Below, in pieces: positions 2,393-37,004 of a stretch of 64,000 bases of DNA. The position numbers and the translations under genes were made by a program. Source of the DNA: Vicinamibacteria bacterium (GTDB lineage: Bacteria; Acidobacteriota; Vicinamibacteria; Marinacidobacterales; Marinacidobacteraceae); the NCBI GenBank assembly GCA_965232015.1, contig OZ246946.1:3430612-3494611 (forward strand), read 5' to 3'. Each line of letters starts with the position of its first letter. Positions within the stretch are counted from its first letter, which is position 1. Under the pieces are notes generated by a model that saw only the letters and a list, made by a program, of their open reading frames with translations, searched no databases and was not told the origin of the DNA.

Positions 2393-3408
2393 CCCCGCTT
2401 CTCGCCGCCCTCGCCGTCGCGGCCGCCGCCCCCTCCCAGGTCCAGTTCCGCGTCACGACCCAGGAAGTGCTCGTGGACGTCGTCGTGACCCGGGACGGCG
2501 AGCCGGTGACGGGCCTCGTCGCGGAGGACTTCACGCTCCGCGATGAGGGAGAGTCGCGGGCGTTCCGGATCGTGCCGCAGGCGGATCTGCCGCTCTCGGT
2601 GCTGTTTCTGATGGACTTGAGCACCAGCGTGACCGAGGAGCGCGCTCGGCGGCTCGAGGAAGCGGCGGCCCGGTTCGGCGCCCAGTTGACGGCCCGCGAC
2701 CGCTGCGCTCACGCGGTCTTCGCCGGCGATCTCCGGCTGGTCGGGGACTTTGGTGATTGCGCCGGGCTCGACGCGGGAGCGGCGCCCGACCAGGCGCCCG
2801 CCCGGGGCACCGCGCTGCGGGATGCGCTCATCCTCGGATCGGCGCTCGTCGAGGGGGAGCCGGGCCGGCCGGTGATCGTGGTGTTCACGGACGGGCAGGA
2901 CACCGCGAGCTGGATTCCGGAGGGGTTGTTCCAGGACGCGCTCCGCGGCATGAACGTGCTGGTGTACGGAGTCATCCCTCCGGACGCGACCGGGACCGCC
3001 CGGACGCCCTACCGTTACCGTCAGTTCGACCCGTCACCGCCTTCCGTGCTCCGTCGGCAGCGGATCGGCATGCGCCGGATGAACCCGGGCGCGGTCCCCG
3101 ACGCGCTCACGCCGCTGCTCGAAGGACCGCGCCGGAACATGCGGAGCCGCAGCGGGGCGCGCCCTCCGTCCGAGCTCCAGCTCCTGCGCCACGCCGCCGA
3201 GGGGAGCGGGGGGCGGATCGTGCGGACCCGCGACGAGGAGCGCCTTGCGGCCGCCTACGAGGAGATCCTCGAGGAGATGCAGGCCCGCTACGTCCTCGCC
3301 TTCGAGCCCGACCCGGCGCAGCCCCCGGGCTGGCGGCGGCTCGAGGTGACCGTGGGCGCGGCCGGGGCGACGGTCCGGCACCGCGCCGGTTACACCCACC
3401 TTCCGTAG
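2389..3408 (+). CDS. VWA (von Willebrand factor type A) domain protein, Acidobacterial-type VWFA-related
   Basis: N-terminal signal peptide. The motif QVQFRVTTQEVLVDVVVTRDGEPVTGLVAEDFTLRDEG followed by LFLMDLSTS...VVFTDGQDTAS gives a MIDAS-like DxSxS...T...D pattern. Translationally coupled to the upstream ORF. Confidence 0.7.
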   Translation: MTPLLAALAVAAAAPSQVQFRVTTQEVLVDVVVTRDGEPVTGLVAEDFTLRDEGESRAFRIVPQADLPLSVLFLMDLSTSVTEERARRLEEAAARFGAQLTARDRCAHAVFAGDLRLVGDFGDCAGLDAGAAPDQAPARGTALRDALILGSALVEGEPGRPVIVVFTDGQDTASWIPEGLFQDALRGMNVLVYGVIPPDATGTARTPYRYRQFDPSPPSVLRRQRIGMRRMNPGAVPDALTPLLEGPRRNMRSRSGARPPSELQLLRHAAEGSGGRIVRTRDEERLAAAYEEILEEMQARYVLAFEPDPAQPPGWRRLEVTVGAAGATVRHRAGYTHLP

Positions 3409-3502
3409 GGAGAACGGGGGCGCTCCGGCGGGGAGGCGCAGCCAGGTCGGGACGCTCGGCGCCGGACTGGGGTAACCGCTGGGTGGCTGGTTCGCTTCGA
3501 CA

Positions 3503-3530
3503 GCTTGCCGGACTGGAGTCCGGCGCTCCG
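3503..3530. repeat. REP-like palindromic element copy (GCCGGACTGGAGTCCGGCGCTCCGG)
   Basis: Perfect hairpin CCGGAC-TGGA-GTCCGG in the intergenic space between the convergent VWA gene and a membrane-protein gene. The same motif recurs at 7381-7625, 11556-11770, 13048-13170 and 36596-36665. Confidence 0.45.
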
Positions 3531-3531
3531 G

Positions 3532-3918
3532 TCAGTCCTCGGAGTAGAAGTGCCCGGCGATCGCCCCCGCGAGCCCCATTTCGACCAGCGTCCAACCGAG
3601 CCCGAGGACGTTGAAGTCCATGAGCCCCATGTTGGCCACGCCGATGGCGGGAAGCAGGGTGTGGAGGATCCACACGGTCACGCCGGCGCACATCGCCTCC
3701 TTCGGGCCACTGCCGAAGCGAGGGCGCAGCGCCGCCACCATCCACGCGATGAGGAGGCCGAGCACGAAGGCGTACACCACCCACACCGCGATCGAGCCGC
3801 CGGCGTCCTCGCCGCCGATCGGGACGACGTACATATTGAGGATGTACTCGCTGACGTTGATCAGGAGACCGGCCAGCAGACCGCCCTTGATCACGCTGCT
3901 CAGATTGATACCACCCAT
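3532..3918 (-). CDS. Hypothetical small integral membrane protein
   Basis: 128-aa ORF with 3-4 hydrophobic helices (LLAGLLINV..., VWVVYAFVLGLLIAWMVAAL, VTVWILHTLLPAIGVA). Codon usage is consistent with neighbouring genes. Confidence 0.45.
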   Translation of the reverse strand: MGGINLSSVIKGGLLAGLLINVSEYILNMYVVPIGGEDAGGSIAVWVVYAFVLGLLIAWMVAALRPRFGSGPKEAMCAGVTVWILHTLLPAIGVANMGLMDFNVLGLGWTLVEMGLAGAIAGHFYSED

Positions 3919-3967
3919 CTCGTTCTCCCCGGGGCCAGTGTCGGGCCCCTGAACCGACCGGCGCGAT

Positions 3968-4714
3968 CTAGCGACCGGAGATGATCCGGAAGAGGTTCCT
4001 CACCGGGTCGTAGAAGCGGTCCACGACGCGCTCCTTCAGTGGGATGATCGCATTGTCGGTGATCGTGATGTGCTCGGGGCACACCTTGGTGCAGCACTTG
4101 GTGATGTTGCAGTAGCCGACGCCCTGCGCCTTCCTCAGGTCGTCGAGCCGGTCCTCGGTGTCGAGGGGGTGCATTTCGAGCGCCGCGGTGTGGACGAAGA
4201 AACGCGGCCCGATGAATTCGTCGTGCTTCTGCGAGTCGCGCAGCACGTGGCAAACGTCCTGGCACAGGAAGCACTCGATGCACTTGCGGAACTCCTGCAC
4301 CCGGTCCACGTCGCGCTGGTCCATCCGCCAGGTGCCGTCCTCGGCGTCGGGCGGCCGCGGCTTGAACTTCCTGATCGCCTTCTTGACCTCGAAGTTCCAG
4401 CTCACGTCGGTGACGAGGTCGCGCAGCAGCGGGAAGGCGCGCATCGGCTCGATCGTGACCGGCTGGTTGTCGGGCAGGTCGCTCATCCGCGTCATGCACA
4501 TGAGGCGGGGGTTCCCGTTCACCTCCGCGCTGCATGAGCCGCACTTGCCCGCCTTGCAGTTCCATCGGACCGCGAGGTCGCCTGCCGACTCGGCCTGGAT
4601 CTGATGGACCGCATCGAGAACGACCATGCCCTCGGTGATGTCGGTCGCGTACTCCTCGAAGCACCCCTCGCCGCCGGTTTCGGCGCGCCAGATGCGGAAC
4701 GTCCTGCTCGCCAT
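3968..4714 (-). CDS. sdhB: Succinate dehydrogenase / fumarate reductase iron-sulfur subunit
   Basis: Translation MASRTFRIWRAET...CKAGKCGSCSAEVNG...CIECFLCQDVC...CNITKCCTKVCP carries the 2Fe-2S, 4Fe-4S and 3Fe-4S cysteine motifs. Its start overlaps the sdhA stop (TGATG). Confidence 0.9.
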   Translation of the reverse strand: MASRTFRIWRAETGGEGCFEEYATDITEGMVVLDAVHQIQAESAGDLAVRWNCKAGKCGSCSAEVNGNPRLMCMTRMSDLPDNQPVTIEPMRAFPLLRDLVTDVSWNFEVKKAIRKFKPRPPDAEDGTWRMDQRDVDRVQEFRKCIECFLCQDVCHVLRDSQKHDEFIGPRFFVHTAALEMHPLDTEDRLDDLRKAQGVGYCNITKCCTKVCPEHITITDNAIIPLKERVVDRFYDPVRNLFRIISGR

Positions 4715-6537
4715 CAGCGGTTCTCCTCGATGATCTGGAGCAGGTCGTTCCGCGGGGGCGTGACCGCTTCCTCGGCCAGCTCCATCTCCCCGTCGGCGCC
4801 CTTCCGCACCACCAGCGTGGCCTTCCCCCACCGTTCGCTCTTCGCCGGATGGTCCTCGCGGAAGTGGGCGCCCCGGCTCTCCTTCCGCTCGGCGGCGGTG
4901 CGCGCGACCGCCTCTGACACCAGGAGGAGGTTCGGAAGGTCGAGCGCGGTGTGCCAGCCCGGGTTGTAGGCGCGGTTCCCCGCCGCCGCGACCGAGCGGG
5001 CGCGATCCCGCAGCGCGAGAACCCCGTCGAGCCCTTCCTCGAGCTCCGCCTGGTTGCGCACGATCCCGACCTTCGCCTGCATGAGGTCCTGCAGCTCGCT
5101 CTGGATCTGGTAGGAACCCACCCCGGAACCGCCCGACTCCTGCCGTTCGAGGGGCGCGAGGGCGTCTCGTTCGGCGGCGGCGACCAGCTCCTGCTCGACG
5201 CCGTCGGATGCGGATCGGGAGTTGGCCCGGGCGAAGCGGGCGGCGTGCTCGCCGGCGCGCTTGCCGAACACGAGCAGATCCGAGAGCGAGTTGCCCCCGA
5301 GGCGGTTCGCCCCGTGGAGCCCGCCGGCGCACTCCCCGGCGGCGAACAGGCCGTCCACCCGGGACATCTGGGTCTCGCCGTCCACTCGGACCCCGCCCAT
5401 CACATAGTGGGTCGTCGGGCCGACTTCCATCGGTTCCTTCGTGATGTCGATCCCGGCGAGCTCCATGAACTGGTGGTACATGCTCGGCAGCTTCCGCCGG
5501 ATGTGCGCTTCGCCGTCCTTCAGTCTCTCCCGGATCCAGGCGATATCGAGAAACACGCCGCCGTGCGGGCTGCCGCGCCCCTCGCGGATCTCGCGGACGA
5601 TGCAGCGCGCCACGTGGTCGCGGGTGAGGAGTTCGGGTGGGCGCCGGGCCTCCTTGTCGCCCTGGGTGTAACGCCATCCCTCCTCTTCGTTGTCGGCGGT
5701 CTGCTGCCGATAGAGGTCGGGGATGTCGTCGAACATGAACCGGCGGCCTTCGCTGTTGCGGAGAACCCCTCCCTCGCCGCGCACGCCCTCGGTGACCAGG
5801 ATGCCGCGCACGCTGGGCGGCCAGACCATCCCGGTCGGGTGGAACTGGACGTACTCCATGTCGATCAGGTCGGCGCCGGCCTCGTAGGCGAGCGCGTGCC
5901 CGTCGCCGGTGTACTCCCAACTGTTCGAGGTGATCCGGAAAGCGCGTCCGATCCCTCCGGTCGCGAGCACGATCGAGTTCGCCCGGAACAGTCGGAAGCG
6001 TCCCTGCTCCCGTTCGTAGGCGAAGGCTCCGATCACCCGGTTGCCGTCGGTGAGGAGCCGGGTCACGGTGCACTCCATGTGGACGTCGATACCCAGATGG
6101 ATGCCGTGATCCTGGAGCGTGCGGATCATCTCGAGGCCGGTGCGGTCGCCGACGTGGGCGAGCCGGGGGTACTTGTGGCCGCCGAAGTTGCGTTGGAGGA
6201 TGCGCTGGTCGGGGGTCCGGTCGAACACCGCGCCCCACGCCTCCAACTCCTGCACCCGGGCCGGCGCCTCCCGGGCGTGGAGCTCGGCCATGGTCGGGTT
6301 GTTGACGTACTGCCCGCCCCGCATCGTGTCCGCGAAGTGGGTCTTCCAGTCGTCGCGTCCGTCCACGTTGGCGAGCGCGGCGGCGATCCCGCCCTCGGCC
6401 ATCACGGTGTGCGCCTTGCCGAGCAGGGACTTCGTCACCAGGCCCACCGAGACTCCGGCGGCCGAGGCCTCGATGGCGGCGCGGAGGCCGGCGCCGCCGG
6501 CCCCGATCACGAGCACATCGTGCTCAGCAGTTTTCAT
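4714..6537 (-). CDS. sdhA: Succinate dehydrogenase / fumarate reductase flavoprotein subunit
   Basis: MKTAEHDVLVIGAGGAGLRAA is the FAD-binding GxGxxG motif. ...HTVMAEGG..., RSHTV-type covalent-FAD region and the ...HGANRLGGNSL... active-site motif are present. Length is 607 aa. Confidence 0.92.
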   Translation of the reverse strand: MKTAEHDVLVIGAGGAGLRAAIEASAAGVSVGLVTKSLLGKAHTVMAEGGIAAALANVDGRDDWKTHFADTMRGGQYVNNPTMAELHAREAPARVQELEAWGAVFDRTPDQRILQRNFGGHKYPRLAHVGDRTGLEMIRTLQDHGIHLGIDVHMECTVTRLLTDGNRVIGAFAYEREQGRFRLFRANSIVLATGGIGRAFRITSNSWEYTGDGHALAYEAGADLIDMEYVQFHPTGMVWPPSVRGILVTEGVRGEGGVLRNSEGRRFMFDDIPDLYRQQTADNEEEGWRYTQGDKEARRPPELLTRDHVARCIVREIREGRGSPHGGVFLDIAWIRERLKDGEAHIRRKLPSMYHQFMELAGIDITKEPMEVGPTTHYVMGGVRVDGETQMSRVDGLFAAGECAGGLHGANRLGGNSLSDLLVFGKRAGEHAARFARANSRSASDGVEQELVAAAERDALAPLERQESGGSGVGSYQIQSELQDLMQAKVGIVRNQAELEEGLDGVLALRDRARSVAAAGNRAYNPGWHTALDLPNLLLVSEAVARTAAERKESRGAHFREDHPAKSERWGKATLVVRKGADGEMELAEEAVTPPRNDLLQIIEENR

Positions 6538-6550
6538 GGCGATGAGGGGC

Positions 6551-7358
6551 TCAGAGGATCCGCAAGTCGCTCCACACCCCCATGGAGCAGAGCCTCACAT
6601 AGAGATCCGAGAAGGCGACCCAGACCAGGCTGCACCACGCCCAGTTCATGTGGCGCAGGTTGAACCAGCTCACGCATTCGTAGGCGCAGCGGCGAGCGGG
6701 CCGGGCGGCGATGCGGTCGAGGACGCCCCCGACCAGGTGACGGAGCGAATGGCAGCCGAAGGTGTACCCGCCGAGCAGGACGACGTTCATCGTGAGAACG
6801 AGCGTTCCGACGCCGATTCCGAAGGTCTCCTGGCCGGTCGCCGGATCCACGAACCACATGGCCTTCCAGGCGTCCCACGCGAGGATGCAGATGAAGCCCA
6901 GCGCCAGGTAGAGGAAGTAGCGGTGGAGGTTCTGGAGGAGGAGCGGGAACCGCAGCTCGCCACCGTACCCCTTCCACGGCTTGCCGACGGTGCAAGATGC
7001 CGGGTTCGAGACGAAGGCCTTGTAGTAGGCGCCCCGGTAGTAGTAGCAGGTGAGCCGGAATCCGGCGGGCGCTCCCAGGATGACCAGCGCCGGCGAGAAC
7101 GGGAGGAAGCTGGGCCAGAACGCCGGCTTCGGCCCCAGCCAGGCGTGGTGGGAGTCCCCCCACAGGACCGGCGAGTACATCGGCGACAGGTAGTTGCCGA
7201 GCTCGAAATGGGCGTTCTGGAACGCGGCCCAGGTGGAATAGACGAGGAATCCGGTGAGCCCCAGCAGGGTTGCCAACGGGACCGCCCACCAGCGGTCGCG
7301 GCGACGGGTAACCCCGAATCCCTGACGCTCGGGGAGGGCTCCGGCGACAGTCGGCACG
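6551..7358 (-). CDS. sdhC: Succinate dehydrogenase cytochrome b subunit (b558 / Bacillus-type membrane anchor)
   Basis: About 268 aa with five hydrophobic helices and conserved His (SHHAWLGPK, FGCHSLRHL). It lies immediately upstream of sdhA. The proposed start is the GTG complementary to 7356-7358; the start is uncertain. Confidence 0.7.
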
Positions 7359-7380
7359 GCGCGGAAGGATATCGGAACCC

Positions 7381-7625
7381 GGAGCGCCGGACTCCAGTCC
7401 GGCACGGGGGAGCGCCACCCTTTGGAGCGCCCCTGGTACGGAGCGCCCCTGGTACGGAGCGCCGGACTCCAGTCCCTTGCCGGCGCGCCGGCAACGCGCC
7501 GGTCAGCATGGGCCGGGAATTGCCGGACTGGAGTCCGGCGCGCCGGCACTCCGGCACCGGTCAGATCCGTCACCCGGTGCCGGGCCCCCACCGGGAGAAC
7601 TGGTGGAGTCCGGCGCTCCGGCGAC
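7381..7625. repeat. Cluster of REP-like elements in the sdhC upstream region
   Basis: Contains GGAGCGCCGGACTCCAGTCCGGC, a direct duplication GGAGCGCCCCTGGTAC x2, CCGGACTGGAGTCCGGCGCGCCGGCACTCCGGCACCGG, and CCACCGGGAGAACTGGTGGAGTCCGGCGCTCCGG. It fills the whole intergenic gap between sdhC and the FGE-family gene. Confidence 0.6.
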
Positions 7626-7626
7626 C

Positions 7627-8511
7627 CTACGGGTCGCCGACACACCGGAAGCCGGTGTGATCCCACGCCGAATCCGCCGGCGCACGGTTCTCCCACGCCA
7701 GCCGGTAGCCCTGGCAGGAGTTCTCGGCGCAGAGGAACGACCCGCCCCGGATTGGCCGACTCTCGGGAGAGCCGCCGTCCACCCACTCCCACGCATTCCC
7801 CGCCATGTCGAACAGGCCGTAGCCGTTCGGCGGAAACGAGCCCACCGGCGCGAGCCCGACAAACCCATCGCGCGCCTCCGCCGGAAACGGGAAGCGACCG
7901 TCGAACAGGTTGGCGGGCGGGCTCCCCGCGAACGGAGAGCGCCGGCCCCACGGATAGATCGCCGCCGAGGTCCCCCCGCGGGCGGCGTGCTCCCATTCGA
8001 CGGCGGTCGGCAGGCGTCCGCCGGACTCGGCGCAGAAGGCGGCGGCGTCGTTCCAGCTCACCTGGACCGCGGGGGCGGCGGGCGCCGCTTCGGAACGATC
8101 CGGACCGCGCGGCGTCCGCCAGTCGGCGCCGTCCCTACGGACCCACCACGGCGCTCCCGGCACCGCCGGGGCATCTCCGGGCGCCGTTCCCGGGGCATGG
8201 AAGACGAGCGACCACCCGAACCGCTCGGCGTCGGTGATCCGCCCGGTTCGCTCGATGAAGCGGGCGAACCGCTCGGTTGTGACCTCGTGCCGGTCGAGGA
8301 GGAATGCCTCGACGCCGGAACCGGCGGGGACCCGCGCCATGCCCTCCGGCGTGGCGCACCCGCAGAGGGCGAGGAGGGCCCCGACGGCGCCGCGGCGGAG
8401 CACCAGGTGAACGGAAGGCGGCGCCCGCTTGTCGAGGCCCGGGAGCCGCGACAGTACACTCCCCCGTGCGGAATTGTCGTTGCGGGCGGGGGGTTTGAAG
8501 ACGGCGGACAT
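7627..8511 (-). CDS. Formylglycine-generating enzyme (SUMF1/EgtB/PvdO) family protein, predicted lipoprotein
   Basis: C-terminal FGE-sulfatase motifs are present (RGGSF..., GFRCV, WEWV, YPWG). A lipobox (ALLALCGCA) sits about 45 aa after the first ATG. An alternative GTG start near 8403 would give a normal signal peptide and avoid overlap with pcm. Confidence 0.72.
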   Translation of the reverse strand: MSAVFKPPARNDNSARGSVLSRLPGLDKRAPPSVHLVLRRGAVGALLALCGCATPEGMARVPAGSGVEAFLLDRHEVTTERFARFIERTGRITDAERFGWSLVFHAPGTAPGDAPAVPGAPWWVRRDGADWRTPRGPDRSEAAPAAPAVQVSWNDAAAFCAESGGRLPTAVEWEHAARGGTSAAIYPWGRRSPFAGSPPANLFDGRFPFPAEARDGFVGLAPVGSFPPNGYGLFDMAGNAWEWVDGGSPESRPIRGGSFLCAENSCQGYRLAWENRAPADSAWDHTGFRCVGDP

Positions 8512-9268
8512 GATCCGATTGGCGCTCGGGAGATTGTGGCCCGTGTCCCTGTTGCTCGCGGCGTTCGCGCCTGCGGGCTGCGGCGCGGGCGATGAGTCAG
8601 CTATGGATCGGGACCCTTTCCGCACCCCCCGGGAACTCATGGTCCGCAACGACCTCGAGGCGCGCGGCGTCCGCGATGCGGCGGTGCTCGAGGCGATGCG
8701 GCGGGTTCCGCGCCACATGTTCGTGGCGGAATCGCTCCGGAGCCAGGCCTACTCCGACCGCCCGCTCCCCATCGGCGAGGGGCAGACGATCTCGCAGCCG
8801 TTCGTGGTCGCGCTGATGAGTTCGCTGGCGCAGGTGGAGTCCGGGTCGAGGGTCCTCGAGATCGGAACCGGTTCCGGTTACCAGGCCGCGGTTCTCGCCG
8901 AACTGGGTGGTGAGGTCTGGTCCATCGAGCTGCTGCCGGCCATCGGGGCCCTCGCCGCCTCGAACCTCGCCGGCGCCGGCTACGAGAGGATCAACCTGAG
9001 GGTGGGAGACGGCTACCAGGGATGGCCCGAGGAAGCGCCGTTCGACCGGATCGTGATCACCGCCGCGCCTTCCACGATCCCGCCGGCGCTGATCGAACAG
9101 CTCGCTCCGGAAGGCCGGCTGATCGCTCCGGTAGGGGACGACCCGCGTTCCCAGCGGTTGCTCGTCGCTACCCGCAACGCCGACGGCGACCTGGAGACGA
9201 CCGATCACGGGGGCGTGGCGTTCGTCCCGATGGTCCCGGGAGACCAGGTCCCCCCGGCGAGCAACTGA
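8510..9268 (+). CDS. pcm: Protein-L-isoaspartate O-methyltransferase, exported/lipoprotein form
   Basis: LEIGTGSGYQAAVLA is the SAM-binding motif I. ...QTISQP... and ...DRIVITAA... are present, as is an N-terminal lipoprotein signal MIRLALGRLWPVSLLLAAFAPAGCG. The start ATG at 8510-8512 sits in a CATG palindrome shared with the divergent FGE ORF. Confidence 0.85.
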   Translation: MIRLALGRLWPVSLLLAAFAPAGCGAGDESAMDRDPFRTPRELMVRNDLEARGVRDAAVLEAMRRVPRHMFVAESLRSQAYSDRPLPIGEGQTISQPFVVALMSSLAQVESGSRVLEIGTGSGYQAAVLAELGGEVWSIELLPAIGALAASNLAGAGYERINLRVGDGYQGWPEEAPFDRIVITAAPSTIPPALIEQLAPEGRLIAPVGDDPRSQRLLVATRNADGDLETTDHGGVAFVPMVPGDQVPPASN

Positions 9269-10408
9269 TCAGTCGGTCGGCTCTCCCCCCTCGGCCGGAT
9301 CGGCGACCGGAGCGGGGACCTTGTTCGCACCGCGGGCCTCCGCCAGAGCGGCGACCCGATCCGCGAGATCGGGATCGTCCGCCGCGAACTGACGAAGCAG
9401 GGGGGCGAGGCCGGCGAGTTTCATCTGGAGGACCCGCTCGCGCAAGGCATCCGGCTTGACCACCTCGATCCAGTCCCACCACCCGATCACATGCCGGGCC
9501 ATGTCGTCCTTGCCTCCGGCGGTGAACCGAACGACGACGCTCCCGTCCTCCTCGCGGACGAGCTCCTGCGAGGGGTGGAAGACCCACTTGTCCACTTCGG
9601 GAGCGCTGGGGTGAAACCGCCACTCCACTTCGATCGGCTCCTCCCGGAACCCACCGAAGAGCTGGCGCACGTACTCGTCGAAGGCCTCGCCGTCCACCGG
9701 GCGGTAGTCGTCGAGGACCCGGACGTTCTCCATGCGATCGAGCCGGAACTGCACCGGGTTCTGGTAGCCCTCGACCCGCCCCACCAGGCATGGACGGACG
9801 CCGAAGAGGATCCCGACCGGCGAAACGCGACGGGTCCGACGCTGGCCGGCGGCGTTGGTGTAGTCGAACCGGAGGCCGCGTTCTTTCAGCAGCGCCACCC
9901 GGAGGCTGTCGTCGGTCTCGGGATCCACCCGCACCCGGGGCGCCGGACGGGCGGCCACGCCGAGCGTGCGAGCCATGTTCTCGGCATTGATGACGACCGA
10001 CTCCGACAAACCGGGAAGTTTTCTCCGCCTTTTCCGTTCCTCGATCGCCTGGCTTTCCCGGAGCGCCTCGTCCATGGTGTTCCGGAGCCTGCCGAGCCGG
10101 CCGACCTCCTGCTCGAAGTGGTGGGCCTCGAGGAGCTCCATGGCCTTGTGGATCGCCGTGAAGTCCCGGTCCTGAAGGGGCAGGCGCACCAGCGAACGGA
10201 ACCACGCGGCGTTGCGATCCACCCGGAAGACGATGCGACCCTCGTGGTTGCGACGCTCGTCGAGCGGCAGGGCGCGGCGCAGTTCGCGAATCCAGCGATG
10301 CGCGGTGCGCCGGGTGATGCCGTACTTCCGGATCAGGAACGCGTAGGTGACCTGATGGCCGGAGAGGAAGTCGTGGAACAGTTGCGAAGCTCGCTCGAGG
10401 CTCGTCAT
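9269..10408 (-). CDS. HTH + WYL domain transcriptional regulator
   Basis: 379 aa. The N-terminal HTH reads VTYAFLIRKYGITRRTAHRWIREL. The central region ...RRVSPVGILFGVRPCLVGRVEGYQNPVQFRLDRM... is WYL-like, and a C-terminal WCTD-like region follows. The much longer first-ATG ORF (to 11107) is a GC-rich extension with no sequence support. Confidence 0.6.
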   Translation of the reverse strand: MTSLERASQLFHDFLSGHQVTYAFLIRKYGITRRTAHRWIRELRRALPLDERRNHEGRIVFRVDRNAAWFRSLVRLPLQDRDFTAIHKAMELLEAHHFEQEVGRLGRLRNTMDEALRESQAIEERKRRRKLPGLSESVVINAENMARTLGVAARPAPRVRVDPETDDSLRVALLKERGLRFDYTNAAGQRRTRRVSPVGILFGVRPCLVGRVEGYQNPVQFRLDRMENVRVLDDYRPVDGEAFDEYVRQLFGGFREEPIEVEWRFHPSAPEVDKWVFHPSQELVREEDGSVVVRFTAGGKDDMARHVIGWWDWIEVVKPDALRERVLQMKLAGLAPLLRQFAADDPDLADRVAALAEARGANKVPAPVADPAEGGEPTD

Positions 10409-10538
10409 GGTGGCCCTCCCCATCCGTTGCGATGGCCCCCCGGCCCGCGCCGCGGGTGTGATCGGACACATTCTGACAGAGCGCGAGCGCGGCGCCGCCA
10501 CACTCCGACGGCCTCGCATAGCATCGCGGGCCCTGCCC

Positions 10539-11783
10539 ATGCCGCGTCGTCGCCCTCTTCTCCTGCTCGGCATGGGTTCGGTACACCGGTCGTTCCTTCG
10601 GATCCTCGAGCGGAAGGCGGGAGGGCTCGCTGCCGACGAGGGGCTCCGGTTCGAGATCGCCGCCTGCGCCGACCGAAGCGGCTTCTTCCGCGGGCCGGAC
10701 GCCTCCGGCAGCCGGCTGACCCGGGAGGCCGTCCTCGAGGTGAAGGAGAGCGGGGGAAGCCTCGGCGATCTGCCCGGAGCGGAGGCGGTCGCGCTCGACG
10801 AAGCGGTCGAGCTTGCGGGCCGCGACGGGATCCTCATGGACGCGGCTTCCATGGACATGGAGACCGGCGGCATCGGGCTGACGGCGGCGCGGGCAGCGCT
10901 GGCCCGTGGGACCTCGGCGGTTTTCGCCAACAAGTCGGCGGTCGCGCTCGCGTTCGACGAACTCGAGTCGCTCGCAGCGGCGAACGGCGCCCGGATGGGA
11001 TGGAGCGCGACCGTCTGCGGCGGGCTCCCGGTGATCAACGCCGCCCGCCGGGAGATGGTGGCGGCGCGGTTCCTCCGGGTGCGGGGCGTGTTCAACGCCA
11101 CCAGCAACCTGGTGCTGGACGAGGTGGCCGCCGGGCGGACCGTGGGCGACGCGATCCGGGAAGCTCAGGAGCGGGGGATCGCCGAGACCGATCCCACGAA
11201 CGACCTGAACGGAACCGACACCGCGGCCAAGCTCGCGATCTTCGCCCGGACGGTTCTCCGCCAATCGGTCACTTTCCGGGATGTGCCGCGGGCGGGTATC
11301 GAGGCGGCGCCGGCGCCAGGAGCGGGCGAGGTCGTCCGCCTGCTCGGCGAGGCCGTGCTCCAGCCGGAGGGGGACTACCGGCTTCGGGTCGCCCCGAGAG
11401 CCGTCCCGCGCCGCAGCTTCTTCGGCGCCATCGGCAGCCTCGACATGGCCGTCGAATGGGAGACGGACCTCTACCAGGTCCACCGCCTCGCCGCCACCGA
11501 GGGAGATGCGGGTCCGACCGCCGCCGCGATGCTGCGCGACGCGGTCCACATCGTCGGAGCGCCCTATGGAGCGCCGGACTCCCGGAGCGCCGGACTCCGC
11601 CAGTTCTCCGGGCCAGTTCTCCCGGTGGGGGCGGGGCCCGGCACCGAGAAGTCCACCCGACCGGTGCCACCCCGTCGGAGCGCCGGACTCCGCCAGTTCT
11701 CCCGGCCAGTTCTCCCGGCCAGTTCTCCCGGTGGGGGCGGGGCGGGGCGGGGCCCGGCACCGAGAGACACCCATGAAGAGTGA
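10539..11783 (+). CDS. hom: Homoserine dehydrogenase (no ACT domain); C-terminal ~70 aa read through REP-like repeats
   Basis: LLLLGMGSVHRSFLRIL is a Rossmann NAD(P)-binding motif. ...AVFANKSAVA... and ...GGLPVI...GVFNATSN... are catalytic-domain motifs. The ORF has no stop until 11783, so the tail GAPDSRSAGLRQFSGPVLP... is encoded by the repeat elements. Confidence 0.8.
   Translation: MPRRRPLLLLGMGSVHRSFLRILERKAGGLAADEGLRFEIAACADRSGFFRGPDASGSRLTREAVLEVKESGGSLGDLPGAEAVALDEAVELAGRDGILMDAASMDMETGGIGLTAARAALARGTSAVFANKSAVALAFDELESLAAANGARMGWSATVCGGLPVINAARREMVAARFLRVRGVFNATSNLVLDEVAAGRTVGDAIREAQERGIAETDPTNDLNGTDTAAKLAIFARTVLRQSVTFRDVPRAGIEAAPAPGAGEVVRLLGEAVLQPEGDYRLRVAPRAVPRRSFFGAIGSLDMAVEWETDLYQVHRLAATEGDAGPTAAAMLRDAVHIVGAPYGAPDSRSAGLRQFSGPVLPVGAGPGTEKSTRPVPPRRSAGLRQFSRPVLPASSPGGGGAGRGPAPRDTHEE
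11556..11770. repeat. REP-like element cluster (two hairpin modules + tandem CCAGTTCTCCCGG 13-mers + GGGGCGGGGC tracts)
   Basis: GGAGCGCCGGACTCC occurs 3 times. CCAGTTCTCCCGG occurs 2-3 times in tandem at two sites. Each unit is followed by TGGGGGCGGGGC(GGGGCGGGGC)CCGGCACCGAGA. Confidence 0.65.
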
Positions 11784-13185
11784 CGTCATGAAGCGTGACG
11801 TGCTGTCCCGCCGGGAAGCGCTGGGCGCCGGACTCGCCGCGGCCGGAACCGCGCTCTCCACCGCCTGCGGCGCTCCCGCAGAGCAGGCCGCCAGCGTCTC
11901 CACCCCGCCAGACGGGCCGCGGGTCGTGGTAGTCGGCGCCGGCGCCTTCGGAGGCTGGACGGCGCTGTGGCTTCTTCGCCGGGGCGCCCGGGTCACCGTC
12001 GTGGACGCGTGGGGCCCCGGCAACTCGCGCGCGAGTTCGGGCGGCGAGACCCGGGTGATCCGGGCCACCTACGGCCCCGACGCGATCTACACCGACATGG
12101 TCGTCCGCGCCCTCGCGCTCTGGAAGGAACATGCAGCGGCGTGGGATGACCGGCTGTTCACCGAGACCGGCGCGCTGTGGATGGCGGGAGACGAGGACGA
12201 CTTCGCGAAGCAGGCCGTCCCCATCCTCCGTGACCGCGGCGTCGCGTTCGAGGAGCTCGACGGGGACGAGATGGGGCGGCGGTTTCCGCAGATCCGCCCC
12301 GACGGGATCACCTACGCGCTCCACGAGAAGGGCGCCGGGTTCCTCGCGGCCCGGCGCGGCTGCCGCCGGGTCCTCGACGCCTTCCTCGCCGAGGGCGGCG
12401 ACTACCGGGAAGCCCGCGCCGAGCCGGGTGCGGTCCGCGGCGGCCGGATGGAGGACATCGGACTCTCCGACGGGAGCCGGCTCGAAGGCGATGTCTTCGT
12501 GTTCGCCGGAGGACCGTGGCTCGCCGAGCTGTTCCCCGGCTTCGATCCGCCCCTCGTCGCCCCTACCCGGCAGGAGATCCTCTACTTCGGAACCCCGCCC
12601 GGTCGGCCCGATCTCACCGAGGCCGGGCTTCCGGTCTGGGTGGAGACCGGCGAGCGTTTCTTCTACGGCGTCCCGGGGAGCGAGAACCGGGGATTCAAGG
12701 TGGCCGATGACGCCCGCGGCGCGCCCTTCGATCCCACGAACGGTGACCGCACGCCCTCGGAGGCGGCGATCCGGGCGGCGCGCGACTACATGGAGTTCCG
12801 CTTCCCGGCGATGGTGGGCGCGCCCCTGCTGGAGGCCCGGGTCTGCCAGTACGAGCAGAGCCCCGACGGGCACCTCATCGTGGACACCCATCCGGACGCG
12901 GGCAACGTGTGGATCGCCGGCGGCGGCTCGGGCCACGGCTACAAGCTGGGACCGGCGCTCGGCGAGATGTTGGCGGACCAGGTCATCGGCGACCGAGACA
13001 AGGAACCGTTCTTCGCGCTGGACCGGTTCGCCGGCGCGCTCGCTGCCGGGCCCGGCCTCGCCCCCGCCCCGCCCCCGCCCCCACCGGGAGAACTGGCCGG
13101 GAGAACTGGCCGGGAGAACTGGCCGGGAGAACTGGCCGGGAGAACTGGCGCCGGACTCCAGTCCGGCAATGAGAGGCATCCATGA
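11773..13185 (+). CDS. FAD-dependent oxidoreductase (DAO / sarcosine-oxidase-beta-like), Tat-exported lipoprotein, paralog 1
   Basis: Tat motif SRREALGAGLAAAG plus lipobox LSTAC, then VVVVGAGAFGGWTALWL (GxGxxG dinucleotide fold) and a C-terminal ...AGGGSGHGYKLGPALGE... region. The last ~50 aa (PPPPPPGELAGRTGRENWPGELAGRTGAGLQSGNERHP) are encoded by REP-like repeats. An alternative ATG lies at 11788. Confidence 0.75.
   Translation: MKSDVMKRDVLSRREALGAGLAAAGTALSTACGAPAEQAASVSTPPDGPRVVVVGAGAFGGWTALWLLRRGARVTVVDAWGPGNSRASSGGETRVIRATYGPDAIYTDMVVRALALWKEHAAAWDDRLFTETGALWMAGDEDDFAKQAVPILRDRGVAFEELDGDEMGRRFPQIRPDGITYALHEKGAGFLAARRGCRRVLDAFLAEGGDYREARAEPGAVRGGRMEDIGLSDGSRLEGDVFVFAGGPWLAELFPGFDPPLVAPTRQEILYFGTPPGRPDLTEAGLPVWVETGERFFYGVPGSENRGFKVADDARGAPFDPTNGDRTPSEAAIRAARDYMEFRFPAMVGAPLLEARVCQYEQSPDGHLIVDTHPDAGNVWIAGGGSGHGYKLGPALGEMLADQVIGDRDKEPFFALDRFAGALAAGPGLAPAPPPPPPGELAGRTGRENWPGELAGRTGAGLQSGNERHP
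13048..13170. repeat. REP-like element with 5 tandem copies of 13-mer CCGGGAGAACTGG and terminal hairpin GCCGGACTCCAGTCCGGC
   Basis: Directly visible tandem array at 13084-13148, preceded by a GCCCCCGCCCCGCCCCCGCCCCC tract. It is in the opposite orientation to the 11556-11770 copy. Confidence 0.65.
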
Positions 13186-14420
13186 AGAAGTCTGAAGGCG
13201 TGTCCCGCCGCGAGGCGCTTTTCGCCGCCGCCGGAACAGCCCTCCCGGCCGCGCGCGCCGCGTTTGCATCACCCTCGATCCAGACCACCGGCAGCACCGA
13301 CTCCCGTCAGGTCGTGGTCGTGGGGGCCGGCGCGTTCGGCGGCTGGACCGCGCTCTGGCTGCTCCGTGGCGGGGCGCGAGTGACCCTGGTGGACGCATGG
13401 GGGCCCGGCAACTCGCGCGCCAGCTCCGGCGGAGAGTCCCGGCTGATCCGGGCGTCCTATGGTGCGAGGCGCATCTACAGCGTCATGGTGAAGCGAGCCA
13501 TGGAGATCTGGCGGGAGCACCAGAGCCGCTGGAACGAGACGCTGTTCCACGACATCGGGATGCTGCGGATGGCGGACGAGGATCGCGTCGAGCGCGACCG
13601 AGTCTCGGGCGAGATCCTGCGGGAGCTCGGACTCGCCGTGGAGGAGTTCACCCCGGACGAGCTCGCCCGCCGCTATCCCCAGATCTCTCCCGAGGGCGTC
13701 GTCTCGGCGCTTCTCGAGAAGGACGCCGGCTACCTGCTCGCCCGGCGCGGCTGCCAGCGCGTCTTCGAGACCTTCGTCGCCGAAGGCGGGGAGTCCCGGC
13801 TCGCCCTCGCCACGCCGGGGGCGATGCGCGGCGGCCGGATGCGCGACATCGGGCTCTCGGACGGCTCCCGGCTGGAAGCGGACGACTTCGTCTTCGCGGG
13901 CGGCCCGTGGCTGGCCGAACTCTTCCCCGGTTTCGATCCACCGCTCGTCCGACCCACCCGGCAGGAGGTCTTCTACTTCGGCCCTCCCGCCGGACGGCCG
14001 GACCTCACCGACGCGGGCCTTCCGGGCTGGATCGGACCCGGCCCGTTCTACGGCATCCCCGGCAACCGCCACCGTGGTCTGAAGATCGCCGACGACCGTC
14101 GCGGGGAGCCCTTCGATCCGACGCACGGCGACCGCACTCCGTCAGACGCCGGGATTCGGGCCGCGCGGGAGTACATGGAAGGCCGCTTCCCGGCGATGCG
14201 TGGCGCGCCGCTCCTCGAAGCGCGCGTCTGCCAGTACGAACAAAGCGCCGACGCGAACCTCATCGTGGACACCCATCCGGAAGCCGACAACGCGTGGATC
14301 GCGGGCGGCGGTTCCGGCCACGGCTACAAGCTCGGCGCCGCGCTCGGCGAGATGCTCGCCGCCCAGGTCCTCGGCGAGCAGGAGAAGGAACCGTTCTTCT
14401 CGCTCGACCGGTTCGGATAG
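13182..14420 (+). CDS. FAD-dependent oxidoreductase (DAO family), Tat-exported, paralog 2
   Basis: The protein is homologous end-to-end with the upstream paralog. It has Tat motif SRREALFAAAG, and its start overlaps the upstream stop (ATGA). It terminates cleanly at ...EPFFSLDRFG. Confidence 0.8.
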   Translation: MKKSEGVSRREALFAAAGTALPAARAAFASPSIQTTGSTDSRQVVVVGAGAFGGWTALWLLRGGARVTLVDAWGPGNSRASSGGESRLIRASYGARRIYSVMVKRAMEIWREHQSRWNETLFHDIGMLRMADEDRVERDRVSGEILRELGLAVEEFTPDELARRYPQISPEGVVSALLEKDAGYLLARRGCQRVFETFVAEGGESRLALATPGAMRGGRMRDIGLSDGSRLEADDFVFAGGPWLAELFPGFDPPLVRPTRQEVFYFGPPAGRPDLTDAGLPGWIGPGPFYGIPGNRHRGLKIADDRRGEPFDPTHGDRTPSDAGIRAAREYMEGRFPAMRGAPLLEARVCQYEQSADANLIVDTHPEADNAWIAGGGSGHGYKLGAALGEMLAAQVLGEQEKEPFFSLDRFG

Positions 14421-14839: not shown

Positions 14840-16344
14840 AATTCAGGCTGTGGACAAAAGCCCTTTTGGCCAGGAGTGGAGATGCTGGTATGGCACCTGG
14901 CGCGGCATGAAATGTGACGACGCCGGAAGCCGAGCAAGCCGAAATCGCGTCCCGAGGACGCCCCGCAGCCTCCAGAGGGCCCGGAAACGGCTCTGAAGGC
15001 GTCTCAGGCGCTCAAAATGCGACATCCGCGCCAGGCGCCGATACCGCTGCAGCGTTCTCGGCGTCCCGACCCCATACCGCGTCCGCATCAGCAGCCCCAG
15101 ATTGAACGCCGCAGCGTGGATCTGGAGTCGTTTGCCGATGTTCTCCCGCCCCCGCAGATACAGCCGCCGCAGCCCGCCGGTCTCGTAGCAGTGCGCGAAC
15201 GAACGCTCCACCACCTCCCCTCGCCGCGCAAGCCACCCCTTCGCGCAGGACCGCCGGATCCGACGCCGGTTCAGATACACCGCTTTCTTCTCCTCCTCCT
15301 TCCCCGCCCACTTCCGCCGCCCCCGCTGCGGCTCCGCCACATACGACCGCAGCCCCTTCCGCTTCAGCCCCACCATCGTCTCGTCGGAGTGATACCCCTT
15401 GTCGCACACCACCACCCGCACCTTTCCCCGCTCCACCTCCGCGTCCTCCAGCCGCGCCTCCATCTCCTCCACCGTCGTCTCCAGCGTCTTCGTGTCCCCC
15501 TGGTCTCCCGGCTGAACCACCACCGCCGCCATCGCACCGGTCTCCAAGTCCACCGCATGCTCCACCTTGTGCAGCATCCGCGTCTCCCCGCTCTTCATCT
15601 TCCCGATCCGCGCGTCCGGATCCACCGGCTGCGTCCATTCCCGGTTCCATCCGGTCTTCTTCTTCCTCCTCCGCTTCCGGTCCACCCGCTTCAGATCCGC
15701 CAGCGTCGGCGTCTCGATCCCCGACTCCCGCGCCAGCCGGCGCAGAAACTCCCGATACGCCTCCCCGCTGTCCCGGCGCCGGATCGCCCGCAGCGCCGCG
15801 TTCGCCCGCAGCGTCGTCCCGTCCACCCCCAGCTTCCGCCCCCGCAGCAACTTCGACTCCCGCAGCCGTCTCAGAACCCACGTGAACACCTCCTCGTGCG
15901 CCTCCAACGAGATCCGCTTCCGCGCCTTCGACAGCGTCGAGTGGTCCCACCCCCGATCCGTCGGCCCCAGCCCCACGAACTCCTTCAGACTCAGCGAGTC
16001 CCCCAGCTGCCAGGCGATCCCACGCTCCGACGGGATGCCCTCGAAATACCCCACCATCAGCAGACGGAAGTAGCTCTCCGGCGGCATGCTCGGCCGGCCT
16101 CTCCCCGACGCGTAGAACTCGCGACAGACATCCTGCGCGTGGTCGTCGAACCCCGCCTCATCCAAAACCTGGTTCAGCCCCCGGTAAAACGCACAGCCCG
16201 GACCTCTCGCGATGTCCGTCGTCGCAATCCACAACTTCCCTGGCCGTTCCACACGGCGCTTGCCCATCGCCATGCCTACAAATTGTAGAACCCCTCACGA
16301 TCCCCGACCCCAAAGACCTTCGGACTTTTTCCACAGACTGAATT
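14840..16344. mobile_element. IS5/IS1182-family insertion sequence (~1.5 kb) with imperfect terminal inverted repeats
   Basis: Left end GAATTCAGGCTGTGGACAAAAGCCCTTTTGG (14840-). The right end reverse-complement is CAATTCAGTCTGTGGAAAAAGTCCGAAGGTCTTTGG (-16344). A single transposase ORF lies inside. The element interrupts the aminotransferase CDS. Confidence 0.7.
14843..16273 (-). CDS. IS5/IS1182-family DDE transposase
   Basis: 476 aa. ...YFRLLMVGYFEGIPSERGIAWQ... and ...KLGVDGTTLRANAA... are the N-terminal transposase_11-like region. ...VVCDKGYHSDE... carries the DDE acidic residues. It sits between the inverted repeats. Confidence 0.8.
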   Translation of the reverse strand: MAMGKRRVERPGKLWIATTDIARGPGCAFYRGLNQVLDEAGFDDHAQDVCREFYASGRGRPSMPPESYFRLLMVGYFEGIPSERGIAWQLGDSLSLKEFVGLGPTDRGWDHSTLSKARKRISLEAHEEVFTWVLRRLRESKLLRGRKLGVDGTTLRANAALRAIRRRDSGEAYREFLRRLARESGIETPTLADLKRVDRKRRRKKKTGWNREWTQPVDPDARIGKMKSGETRMLHKVEHAVDLETGAMAAVVVQPGDQGDTKTLETTVEEMEARLEDAEVERGKVRVVVCDKGYHSDETMVGLKRKGLRSYVAEPQRGRRKWAGKEEEKKAVYLNRRRIRRSCAKGWLARRGEVVERSFAHCYETGGLRRLYLRGRENIGKRLQIHAAAFNLGLLMRTRYGVGTPRTLQRYRRLARMSHFERLRRLQSRFRALWRLRGVLGTRFRLARLPASSHFMPRQVPYQHLHSWPKGLLSTA

Positions 16345-20283: not shown

Positions 20284-20564
20284 GAGGGAATCATACGTTT
20301 GTCATACCCGTTGGGTCCGCGCCGACGGCCTCTCCCGTCCGGCGGCGGAACGAGGTGGCTGCGAGAGACGGGGCGAGTCCCTGAACAGCGCCCGGAAGCC
20401 GCCGGCTCACGCCCAGTCGAAGTCCTCTGGCACACGGAAGTCCCGGCCGGGAACCCGGGCCGACGTACCGGCCGGGACTCCACCGTGCTCCCGCGCACGA
20501 GCGAGGGGTAGCGACACGTGTTGTCGTATGCAGCGCGTAGCGTCTCAGGAGCCATGGGGGAGCG

Positions 20565-22550: not shown

Positions 22551-22722
22551 GCGGCCCTCCGGGGCTCCTCGCGAAACGCCACAAGGGGTCTCGCCTCCTC
22601 GCTCACGGCGGATGCCCGGCAGCCCGGCGGCGTTGAGCCAACACGCACTCTCCAAGGGATAGCTACGACGCGTGTTGTCACATCTCGGCTTTACCGTCAT
22701 TCGCTCCAGTGGGGAGAGAACC

Positions 22723-25669: not shown

Positions 25670-25874
25670 GACGACCCCCTCAGTCTAGCCCACCGGACTT
25701 AGTTTAGTCTCACGTCGGGGCAGGCCCCGTTGATCGGCCGCGGGTCGAGCGCAGCGGGGTCGGCGCACTTCGCGGTGATGCGCCGTGGCTCCCGTCGGTG
25801 TCGAGAACCGGCGTGGCGCGCCCTGTCCCGCGGCTGATTCCCGCGGCGGGCGCAGGCCGGCATAATCCGCCGCC

Positions 25875-36683: not shown

Positions 36684-36704
36684 ACGCTGGGAAGGACAGT
36701 CGAG

Positions 36705-36947
36705 ATGAGTGATCTCTACGCGCGGGTCTCGTGGTTCCGAGATCTCGCCCGGCGCATTGCCGATGGTGGGAAGGAGTACCTCGCCGACCGAGTTCCCAAG
36801 GTGGACTGGAAGAAAAGGAGGCCCCCGGCGGTTGTCCAAATGGGCCTCGCTCTCTCGGCCAGCCCGGACGCGCTCCTCGATCAGATCCGGAAGCTGGCCA
36901 TGCGGATTCGCGGTGCGGCGGCCGCCGTCCACTTTCACGCGGTCTGA
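36705..36947 (+). CDS. Hypothetical small protein (80 aa)
   Basis: ORF with an SD-like GGAAGGA 12 nt upstream. It has lower GC and sits between the two ATPase genes on the same strand. Confidence 0.35.
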   Translation: MSDLYARVSWFRDLARRIADGGKEYLADRVPKVDWKKRRPPAVVQMGLALSASPDALLDQIRKLAMRIRGAAAAVHFHAV

Positions 36948-37004
36948 CTACGCTTGACACGAGCTCCAGCACCGAGTGGTCGGCCCGCGAGATACGCTCC
37001 GGAC

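Follow-up and report, generated by a model that had tools for sequence, protein, structure and literature searches.

We analyzed a 64-kb stretch of DNA from a Vicinamibacteria bacterium (contig OZ246946.1, positions 3,430,612-3,494,611, forward strand; 68% G+C), which we will refer to as the window. One modular repeat forms five clusters in the window. We consider it very likely that these clusters are repetitive extragenic palindromic (REP) elements, arranged in mosaics like bacterial interspersed mosaic elements (BIMEs), and that they belong to a REP-RAYT system (RAYT: REP-associated tyrosine transposase) of an uncultured lineage of Acidobacteriota. Three of the clusters have overwritten the ends of genes, and the protein tails that they encode are probably by-products. 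In a sister genome, a RAYT gene is flanked by this same repeat. We compared the window to syntenic loci from three sister strains (L001, L061, and L062) and from an outgroup (L063/L064). Genes were mapped using frame-specific G+C content at third codon positions (GC3) and Pfam searches.

A modular repeat in five clusters

The clusters have the following approximate extents:

3409-3531, minus strand: REP cluster 1, intergenic, between a convergent VWA-like gene and a 128-aa gene
7379-7623, both orientations: REP cluster 2, a BIME-like mosaic between two minus-strand genes
11556-11764, plus strand: REP cluster 3, inside the 3' end of hom (homoserine dehydrogenase)
11733-11752, plus strand: G-tract GGGGGCGGGGCGGGGCGGGG, within a long form of cluster 3
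13040-13168, minus strand: REP cluster 4, inside the 3' end of DAO oxidoreductase 1 (DAO1)
36603-36660, plus strand: REP cluster 5, a single long form inside the 3' end of a 1695-aa open reading frame (ORF)

The repeat is built from three units. The first is a head, GGAGCGCC, which is often in tandem and also occurs alone in 12-16-bp tandem units (GGAGCGCCCTAT, GGAGCGCCCCTGGTAC, and GGAGCGCCGGACTCCC). The second is a short form, GGAGCGCCGGACTCC-AGT-CCGGCA(CCGAG), with the core palindrome GCCGGACT-CC-AGTCCGGC. The third is a long form, GGAGCGCCGGACTCC-R-(CCAGTTCTCCCGG)n-TGGGGG(CGGGG)n-C-CCGGCACCG(A/G)G, whose 3' end can be written more briefly as CCCGGCACCG. Both ends are common to the short and long forms, and the long form looks like a short form with its AGT center swapped for two tandem arrays.

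The clusters combine these units in different ways. Cluster 1 has a hairpin (3507-3524) and heads at 3419-3426 and 3522-3529. Cluster 2, which lies between the stop of an FGE-sulfatase-domain gene and the start of a ~268-aa gene upstream of sdhA, has five heads, three hairpins in both orientations, and one minus-strand long form (7573-7622); within it, 7379-7404 and 7521-7546 form an inverted pair with 116-nt spacing. Cluster 3 comprises one 12-bp head unit (GGAGCGCCCTAT), two heads that carry the left arm, and a pair of long forms; these have two and three 13-mers, and their G-tracts have 2 and 4 blocks. Cluster 4 joins an inverted long form (a C-tract and five 13-mers, 13084-13148) to a forward hairpin (13150-13167). 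Cluster 5 reads TATGGAGCG-GGAGCGCCGGACTCC-A-CCAGTTCTCCCGG-TGGGGGG-CCGGCACCGGG, and its arm at 36609-36658 is 96% complementary to 7573-7622. Four runs of at least 4 G occur in just two motifs of the window (11733-11752 on the plus strand and 13061-13082 on the minus strand), and both are CGGGG expansions inside long-form REPs.

Altogether there are ~9 head-plus-arm copies across the five clusters. Within the window, the hairpin core CCGGACTCCAGTCCGG, allowing up to two mismatches, has 9 strand-matches at 5 places (3508, 7387, 7462, which is degenerate, 7523, and 13151), versus 0.18 expected, and none of 100 shuffles reached this number. The 13-mer CCAGTTCTCCCGG has 20 matches, versus 3.8 expected; all 12 of its exact copies are within clusters 2-5, in tandem runs of two, three, and five units (the run of two includes a unit with a single mismatch) plus two single units. 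The octamer GGAGCGCC has 36 matches versus 12.5 expected, a three-fold excess, including 5 in 7381-7463 and 4 in 11556-11684. These counts, which are far above chance, confirm the original prediction, which was made from the window alone, that the repeat is present at five places. The prediction that its orientation flips between copies also holds: a repeat finder joins the clusters in both orientations, which are mixed within clusters as well as between them.

All five clusters are either between unidirectional or convergent gene pairs or on the last, non-conserved codons of a gene. The repeat had been described as always lying at gene ends; this is accurate for clusters 3-5, which are within the 3' ends of genes, but clusters 1 and 2 are purely intergenic and are not translated as part of conserved proteins. 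The N-terminus of the gene upstream of sdhA (6551-7418 on the minus strand of the window, 6053-7000 in L001, and 5979-6833 in L061) varies among strains (268, 284, 294, or 315 aa) because gene callers extend it into cluster 2. The true start is probably that of the 268-aa version, which is common to the outgroup.

The short hairpin GGAGCGCCGGACTCCAGTCCGGCA has a 7-bp stem and a 4-nt UCCA loop, and it folds convincingly both as RNA (-14.2 kcal/mol, z = -2.3) and as DNA (-8.1, z of about -2). The whole composites (226 nt and 156 nt) fold no better than shuffled sequence (z = -0.3 and -0.2), so the structure prediction suggested earlier supports the hairpin only, and we rejected the idea of one large structured RNA. 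Across 22 distinct variants of the hairpin, three stem pairs covary. Double-sided changes were found in 23 cells, versus 7.0 +/- 2.5 in shuffles, and none of 500 shuffles reached this. Also, 95.5% of cells are paired, versus 14-44% if the partner column is slid, although this percentage is inflated by the preselection of variants with at least 7/8 pairs. In Rfam 15, the window had no match at gathering thresholds, and the two chance-level matches in 3300-13400 (E > 3) were not on the repeats. A literal search of the literature for the hairpin sequence returned only unrelated eukaryotic primers.

The clusters are also where closely related strains differ. BLASTN alignments of the window to L001 are 93-98% identical and break exactly at four clusters, and the four strains have four different module compositions at a site, except that cluster 2 is the same in the window and in L061. 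Site lengths were measured as the stretch between fixed flanking anchors that contains each cluster. Site 1 is 27, 56, 144, or 160 bp in the four strains. Site 2 is rebuilt in L001, and in L062 it has another type of REP together with ancestral hairpins that are common to the outgroup. The hom site has a short form in L001; in L061 it has the two long forms of the window, minus one 13-mer and with a shorter G-tract (a difference of 18 bp); and in L062 it has doublets of B-type REPs (described below). The DAO1 site is 67, 134, or 160 bp in three strains, with no 13-mers in L001, three in L061, and five in the window.

The ancestral hairpins at site 2 (L062 6990-7160 and L063 5210-5340) are a conserved pair upstream of the sdh-linked 268-aa gene, GGAGAGGGG...CCCCTCTCC and GATCGCAACC/CCATTGCAATGGCAACC...GGTTGC..., and they are replaced by REPs in the lineage of the window. 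With them, that lineage may have lost a regulatory or terminator structure.

RAYT genes and matching REP types

The outgroup locus L063 encodes a RAYT (169-861) with 81.1 bits on NF047646 (REP_Tyr_transpos; cut-off 80 bits) and 28.7 bits on Y1_Tnp (cut-off 23 bits). A tblastn query with an E. coli RayT sequence served only as a lead to this ORF, which was then confirmed by these curated models. In the protein, the HUH motif reads PNHVHVLL and the catalytic-tyrosine motif YIESNPVKAGL. Its gene occupies the position of cluster 1 in the window; upstream are two forward B-type REPs, TATGGAACGCCGCTCTCCAGAGCGGCA, and downstream are inverted B-type copies, including a long form with CCGGTTCTCCCGG.

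A complete sister genome encodes another RAYT, P0126 (locus L065), which is 68% identical to the RAYT from L063 and lies on a 3,809,873-bp contig, 2 Mb from the hom region. P0126 is flanked by CCGGAGCGCCGGACTCCCGGAGCGCCGGACTCCAGTCCGGCACCGAG upstream and by inverted TGCCGGACTGGAGTCTGG downstream, which is exactly the A-type REP of the window. In a third relative (L067), copies of GGAACGCCGGCCTCCAGGCCGGCA flank a RAYT of 57% identity, three on one side and five on the other. These three RAYT lineages are accompanied by three types of stem, with compensatory differences in a triplet:

A-type stem: GCCG-GAC-T CC A-GTC-CGGC
B-type stem: GCCG-CTC-T CC A-GAG-CGGC
C-type stem: GCCG-GCC-T CC A-GGC-CGGC

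The head, the CTCCAG center, and the GGCA end are constant across the three types, and the B-type head often has TAT before it (CTATGGAGCGCC). GTAG is absent: the head is GGAGCGCC and departs from the GT(A/G)G heads.

Two of these RAYT loci have further features. In L067 (1130-1440 and 2300-2900), the C-type REPs are part of an unusually regular array of 120-bp units, 3 upstream and 5 downstream of the RAYT gene, and each unit also has a second hairpin, CCCCGCGAAGCGGGG. In L065, the RAYT gene is bracketed by two inverted genes for IS110-family transposases. Just outside each IS110 gene (2156-2290 and 10040-10145) is a shared inverted GGCGCGCCTATAACGTTTCCGAGCGCTCGCGAGGG, which abuts a long-form REP. 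This layout would fit REP-targeting IS110 elements, or a composite mobile unit that carries the RAYT.

The repeat is not confined to the window. Locus L065, which is unlinked, contains another four REP-motif sites within 12.7 kb of the sister genome; the family thus recurs beyond this region of the genome. The original prediction of a lineage-specific family fits the long form, which we found solely in this acidobacterial group (the window, L039, L061-L063, and L065) and which had no match in two scans of JGI metagenomes. It is not right for the head and hairpin. The exact 22-mer occurs at least 28 times in a metagenome-assembled genome (MAG) from the Caldilineaceae (JAGRCP01, HKST-UBA29; loci L004-L059), as heterodimers that resemble REPINs. 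(The 23-mer GGAGCGCCGGACTCCAGTCCGGC is our 22-base search pattern plus the next base.) Among the matches listed, the same or a near-identical sequence is also present in Opitutaceae and other Verrucomicrobiota, Anaerolinea, Planctomycetota, and MAGs of other Acidobacteria. Clean doublets fold at z = -6.5 (Caldilineaceae) and z = -10.4 (Opitutaceae). Either REP-RAYT systems have crossed from phylum to phylum, or there is strong constraint on the head and loop. REP-RAYT systems are usually described as vertically inherited.

Genomes from other phyla, namely the Caldilineaceae MAG and an Opitutaceae MAG (loci L007, L015, L027, and L032), contain exact GGAGCGCCGGACTCCAGTCCGGC or its AGCCCGG variant many times. 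As a rule, each copy pairs with a covarying partner as one of the two arms of a long hairpin, such as GCCAAGCTGGAGCTTGGCGCTCCC. We also considered a RAYT from Haloferula (53% identical) as a link across phyla, but it is flanked by a different REP (GGACCGCGCGGCTCCGACCGCGC) and so does not link this clade of RAYTs to the GGAGCGCC head across phyla.

Lost stop codons, repeat-encoded tails, and neighboring genes

The genes that run into clusters 3-5, and the paralog that follows DAO1, are:

10536-11783 (most likely), plus strand: hom, homoserine dehydrogenase; Pfam PF00742 in its homologs; 100% match to P0001
11773 or 11788 to 13185, plus strand: DAO oxidoreductase 1, FAD-dependent, with a Tat-like signal; Pfam DAO, 1.6e-44
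13182-14420, plus strand: DAO oxidoreductase paralog 2 (DAO2), with a Tat signal and without the repeat; ends ...DRFG*
31596-36683, plus strand: P-loop ATPase of 1695 aa, with weak FtsK/TrwB-like and STAND matches

As originally predicted, all three proteins with the repeat have lost their natural stop, and their ORFs continue through the repeat; their orthologs or paralog end where it begins. For hom and DAO1, the comparison of ancestral stops that had been proposed shows that the relatives lack the repeat-encoded tail. The predicted GAPDS peptide is indeed encoded by the repeat, but by the head and the left arm of the hairpin (GGAGCGCCGGACTCC) and not by the whole hairpin. Predicted peptides across the boundaries between conserved and repeat-encoded sequence include ...AVHIVGAPYGAPDS... 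and ...DRFAGALAAGP....

The start of hom was inferred from its orthologs (alternatives are 10407 and 10572). Its conserved part ends with ...AVHIV (~11555), and the remainder is encoded by the repeat. The closest orthologs (77-88% identical, 356 aa) have a native tail of ~18 aa, RGxPxGPxxRxG..., after ...LRDAVHIA, and this native tail is unrelated to the repeat-encoded one. At the AVHIA codon, the window's hom departs into 75 residues, GAPYGAPDSRSAGLRQF..., and this tail (GAPYGAPDSRSAGLRQFS...THEE) is encoded by cluster 3. In the outgroup L063, hom has the native tail and a stop in non-repetitive DNA, where the stop overlaps the start of DAO1 as GTGA. We translated cluster 3 in six frames and compared it to the protein database; only hom was returned, in a list swamped by low-complexity words.

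The conserved part of DAO1 ends with ...DRFA (~13035); reading on through the inverted long form and then the hairpin adds 50 residues, and the TGA stop overlaps the ATG of DAO2. Outgroup DAO1 ends with ...DRFAA*. DAO2, which ends with ...EPFFSLDRFG*, serves as an internal control for the ancestral C-terminus. In the ATPase, the last 28-30 or so residues (PAAAYGAGAPDSTSSPGGGPAPGVTTASAE) are repeat-encoded, and the protein ends with ...RVALDPPAAAYGAGAPDSTSSPGGGPAPGVTTASAE*. An exhaustive profile-free search found 1,211 homologs, of which the full-length ones (1640-1693 aa) end near positions 567-572 of the 599-residue query; the three that we inspected end with ...GLLSLD*, ...RLAQPS*, and ...VKLSP*.

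The tails vary among strains. The protein database contains hom alleles of four more assemblies from this species-level group, and their tails are 3, 22, 69, or 75 aa. The shortest is in L062, whose head variant GGAGCGCCGTAA gives a stop right after GAP (GAP*). The frame of the DAO1 tail through the hairpin is different in each of three strains (AGLQSGNERHP, RRTPVRQ, or APDSSPTRRDIHEEV). Because both length and frame differ between strains, we infer that the tails are neutral by-products rather than peptides under selection. Owing to its GC content, the repeat is open, or almost open, in each of the six frames.

One database protein, P0124 (552 aa, from a 4.6-kb contig), has a hom ORF that reads the REP in another frame (GAPDSASSPGG...) and continues into an unrelated ORF of ~170 aa. 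From its sequence, this appears to be a repeat-mediated fusion or rearrangement downstream of hom.

The rest of the gene map includes:

2389-3408, plus strand: VWA-like gene, which stops ahead of cluster 1
3532-3918, minus strand: 128-aa gene
4714-6537, minus strand: sdhA
7627-8718, minus strand: FGE-sulfatase-domain gene
Between the FGE-sulfatase-domain gene and hom in map order: PCMT methyltransferase
Between the PCMT methyltransferase and hom in map order, minus strand: WYL regulator
14843-16294: insertion sequence (IS) with DUF772 and a DDE_Tnp_1 transposase
20541-24864: two ankyrin-repeat genes

A placement of hom near 3503 was rejected: the gene that ends at 3408 is the VWA-like gene, which stops before the repeat. 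We also discarded an ORF at 9491-11776 (761 aa) and a long version of the WYL ORF as antisense shadows of real genes. The IS is IS5/IS1182-like (insertion at ~14842-16339), with AATT on both flanks, and it splits a class-V aminotransferase gene that is intact (427 aa) in L001, L061, and L062. The ankyrin-repeat genes are built from 90-bp tandem units, with 11-17 copies detected; the counterpart gene encodes 483 aa in L001 but 661 aa in L061, and strains therefore differ in their number of repeats. The ATPase is part of a defense-island-like block (25866-38192) that also has a 1313-aa NERD and STAND-NTPase protein, a 602-627-aa protein with no domain match, an 80-aa ORF, and an AAA_16 ATPase; BLAST matches to L001 end at ~25,676. 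The family of the 1695-aa ATPase is large and uncharacterized. Most of its homologs have 1640-1690 aa, and the Walker A motif GLPGMGKTT is near the C-terminus.

Explanations for the repeat and its wider meaning

The repeat has much in common with the REP/BIME and RAYT systems of E. coli (REP-YafM), Pseudomonas (REPINs), and Stenotrophomonas maltophilia (PMC2817692, PMC3116915). It has the same short head and GC-rich palindrome, and its copies are clustered as mosaics, run in both directions, and lie between genes that are unidirectional or convergent. As in those systems, inverted copies of one and the same REP flank a RAYT gene, and the stem changes are compensatory and go together with the RAYT lineage. 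The resemblance to the Smal2 REP of S. maltophilia extends to the head and the first bases of the stem (GGAGCGCCGG here and GGTAGCGCCGG there), apart from one missing base. This system differs in its host, an uncultured lineage of Acidobacteriota, in the occurrence of the head alone in 12-16-bp tandem arrays, and in having a second, longer unit with internal 13-bp and 5-bp tandem arrays.

Several observations weigh against a REP-RAYT system. Instead of the canonical GT(A/G)G of REPs (one listed REP is GGTAGCGCCGGGCCATGCCCGGCG; PMC2817692), the head has GGAG, or TATGG in B-type copies, although degenerate heads are reported for some REP families. The long form, with its 13-mer and G-tract, lacks a described counterpart among REPs, and it folds no better than shuffles (z = -0.3). 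Inverted doublets are formed by only some of the copies (the 7379-7404/7521-7546 pair and the B-type pairs in L062); many copies are single or in direct tandem. There is no RAYT in the window, and a search of the window and 60-odd loci found copies in L063 and L065 only; a search for RAYT homologs listed one complete sister genome and none from the 3,883,547-bp source contig, so the RAYT is seen here in a sister genome and relatives. The preselection of hairpin variants, mentioned above, belongs on this side as well.

We propose that the unit consists of GGAGCGCC, as a degenerate head of the GT(A/G)G type, and a 7-8-bp hairpin after it. When the DNA is single-stranded, the hairpin would be the presumed substrate of a RAYT (an HUH/Y1 transposase) that is encoded elsewhere in the genome and that would spread the units through single-stranded hairpin intermediates. 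Two papers on E. coli RayT and IS200/IS605 elements describe the single-stranded hairpin mechanism as established there (PMC3479197, PMC6006769). Copies would build up where insertion is tolerated, which is between genes or on the last unconstrained codons. The internal units (the 12-16-bp head repeats, the 13-bp CCAGTTCTCCCGG, and the 5-bp CGGGG) would then expand or contract, in the simplest case by slipped-strand mispairing or by recombination between copies of the head. The hom-DAO1-DAO2 operon had almost no intergenic space, and since it offered no neutral intergenic DNA, insertions would have fallen on 3' codons and removed the native stops. Ribosomes would read through the GC-rich, stop-poor repeat up to stop codons around the start of the next gene, which would yield tails rich in Pro, Gly, Ser, and Arg.

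The original prediction was of a mobile or recombinogenic family, REP-like or like miniature inverted-repeat transposable elements (MITEs). The flanks of the RAYT genes support REPs, and the polymorphism among strains supports mobility or instability. It is hardly credible that the elements are MITEs derived from a DDE-type IS such as the one at 14843-16294. The family is small, repeated, insertion-polymorphic, and present in both orientations, and the window does have that IS, which is absent from the sister strains; but the ends of the IS (CAGGCTGTGGACAAAAG / CAGTCTGTGGAAAAAGT) are unrelated to the repeat, filled and empty polymorphic sites show no bounding terminal inverted repeats or target-site duplications, and what the family matches is the flanks of Y1 (RAYT) genes. 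The prediction that the element is more than a terminator held up, as there are no terminator-like sites (a hairpin with a T-run) in 3300-13400, where shuffles give 3.2. A broader role as RNA signals, with the elements kept as terminators or as 3' hairpins that protect mRNA segments in operons and not for mobility, is improbable, if less so than the other alternatives. The hairpin is stable as RNA and is located downstream of genes or at their 3' ends, and PMC3733652 and PMC3479197 report REPs in mRNA stabilization and termination. Yet the orientation flips between and within clusters, some sites are between tightly coupled genes where termination would harm, presence and copy number differ between near-identical strains, and the association with RAYTs would be left unexplained. 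As a secondary effect, the hairpins may still influence mRNA stability.

A different view is that the tails are selected as functional extensions, such as disordered linkers, localization signals, or degradation tags, with the repeat as their vehicle. Three independent genes carry tails, the ORFs are open through the repeat in every strain and stop close to the next start codon, and the hom regions of the window and L061 differ by a multiple of three (18 bp). Against this, the hom tail ranges from 3 to 75 aa among strains that are at least 90% identical, with the head variant of L062 leaving only three residues; the outgroup orthologs and the paralog are tailless; and open frames are expected from the GC content. 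The use of all three frames by DAO1 among strains largely refutes this view, and we think it very unlikely. We see scarcely any chance that the lost stops and odd tails are assembly or consensus errors from long-read metagenomes (indels in G/C tracts or collapsed tandem repeats). Record names (ctg..._115x_c) do suggest long-read assemblies, and homopolymer-rich tracts are prone to indels, so the exact frames after G-tracts are uncertain. However, the ancestral stop is lost at both hom and DAO1 in 4/4 independent assemblies, the repeat directly follows the same conserved codon in all four, and the strain differences are whole modules of 13-90 bp and not single-base indels.

It is more speculative, and we give it little credence, that REP arrays on operon junctions are a heritable and reversible contingency switch that tunes the expression of a metabolic operon. 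The 13-bp and 5-bp units are not multiples of three, so changes in copy number would shift the upstream ORF among three frames. Two of these frames would end at different distances from the next start and could alter translational coupling; the third frame of hom is the frame of DAO1 and would fuse the two proteins. The same expansions would create the only strong G-quadruplex motifs in the window. Nothing in our analysis supports a regulatory or contingency role for the arrays.

REPs at the ends of ORFs and inside them are already known. In Opitutus terrae and Thauera, GTAG/CGTC REPs are likewise read within proteins, where they encode 20-82 aa (Di Nocera 2013, PMC3733652). These REPs are tolerated at termini, and were judged to be neutral and non-functional on the ground that their host proteins are unrelated; their ends sometimes provide a stop codon, as with GGAGCGCCGTAA in L062 (PMC3733652). 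The elements described here differ in that they replace the native C-terminal stop instead of being inserted internally in frame, and in that the length and frame of the tail vary within one species via changes in tandem arrays. The novelty lies in the lineage, in the GGAG/TATGG head, in the long form and the 13-bp and 5-bp arrays inside it, and in tails whose frame varies between strains.

Two other systems behave in related ways. The Rickettsia palindromic elements (RPE), which Ogata is said to have described in 2000, are reportedly palindromic repeats that are read as part of proteins. In mycobacteria, the variable-number tandem repeats of interspersed repetitive units (MIRU-VNTR; Supply and colleagues, 1997) are said to place short tandem units at junctions in polycistronic operons, with copy numbers that vary by strain and frames that abut or overlap. 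These MIRUs are reportedly 40-100-bp units without an associated Y1 transposase or a hairpin head, and the likeness may be taken as an analogy of behavior only.

Our results document a REP-RAYT system in poorly studied, uncultured Acidobacteriota, with three co-varying pairs of REP and RAYT in related genomes. They also have practical consequences: annotated C-terminal extensions in these genomes, and some N-terminal ones, are read-through of the repeat and are unfit for use as domains or in alignments; contigs of related MAGs break at the repeats (L063 begins inside one); and the arrays are usable as markers for strain typing. Finding the exact 22-mer in other phyla gives a starting point for tracing horizontal spread, or constraint, in REP-RAYT systems. 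Finally, these genes are a clean natural example of a selfish repeat that overwrites stop codons in operons without intergenic space.

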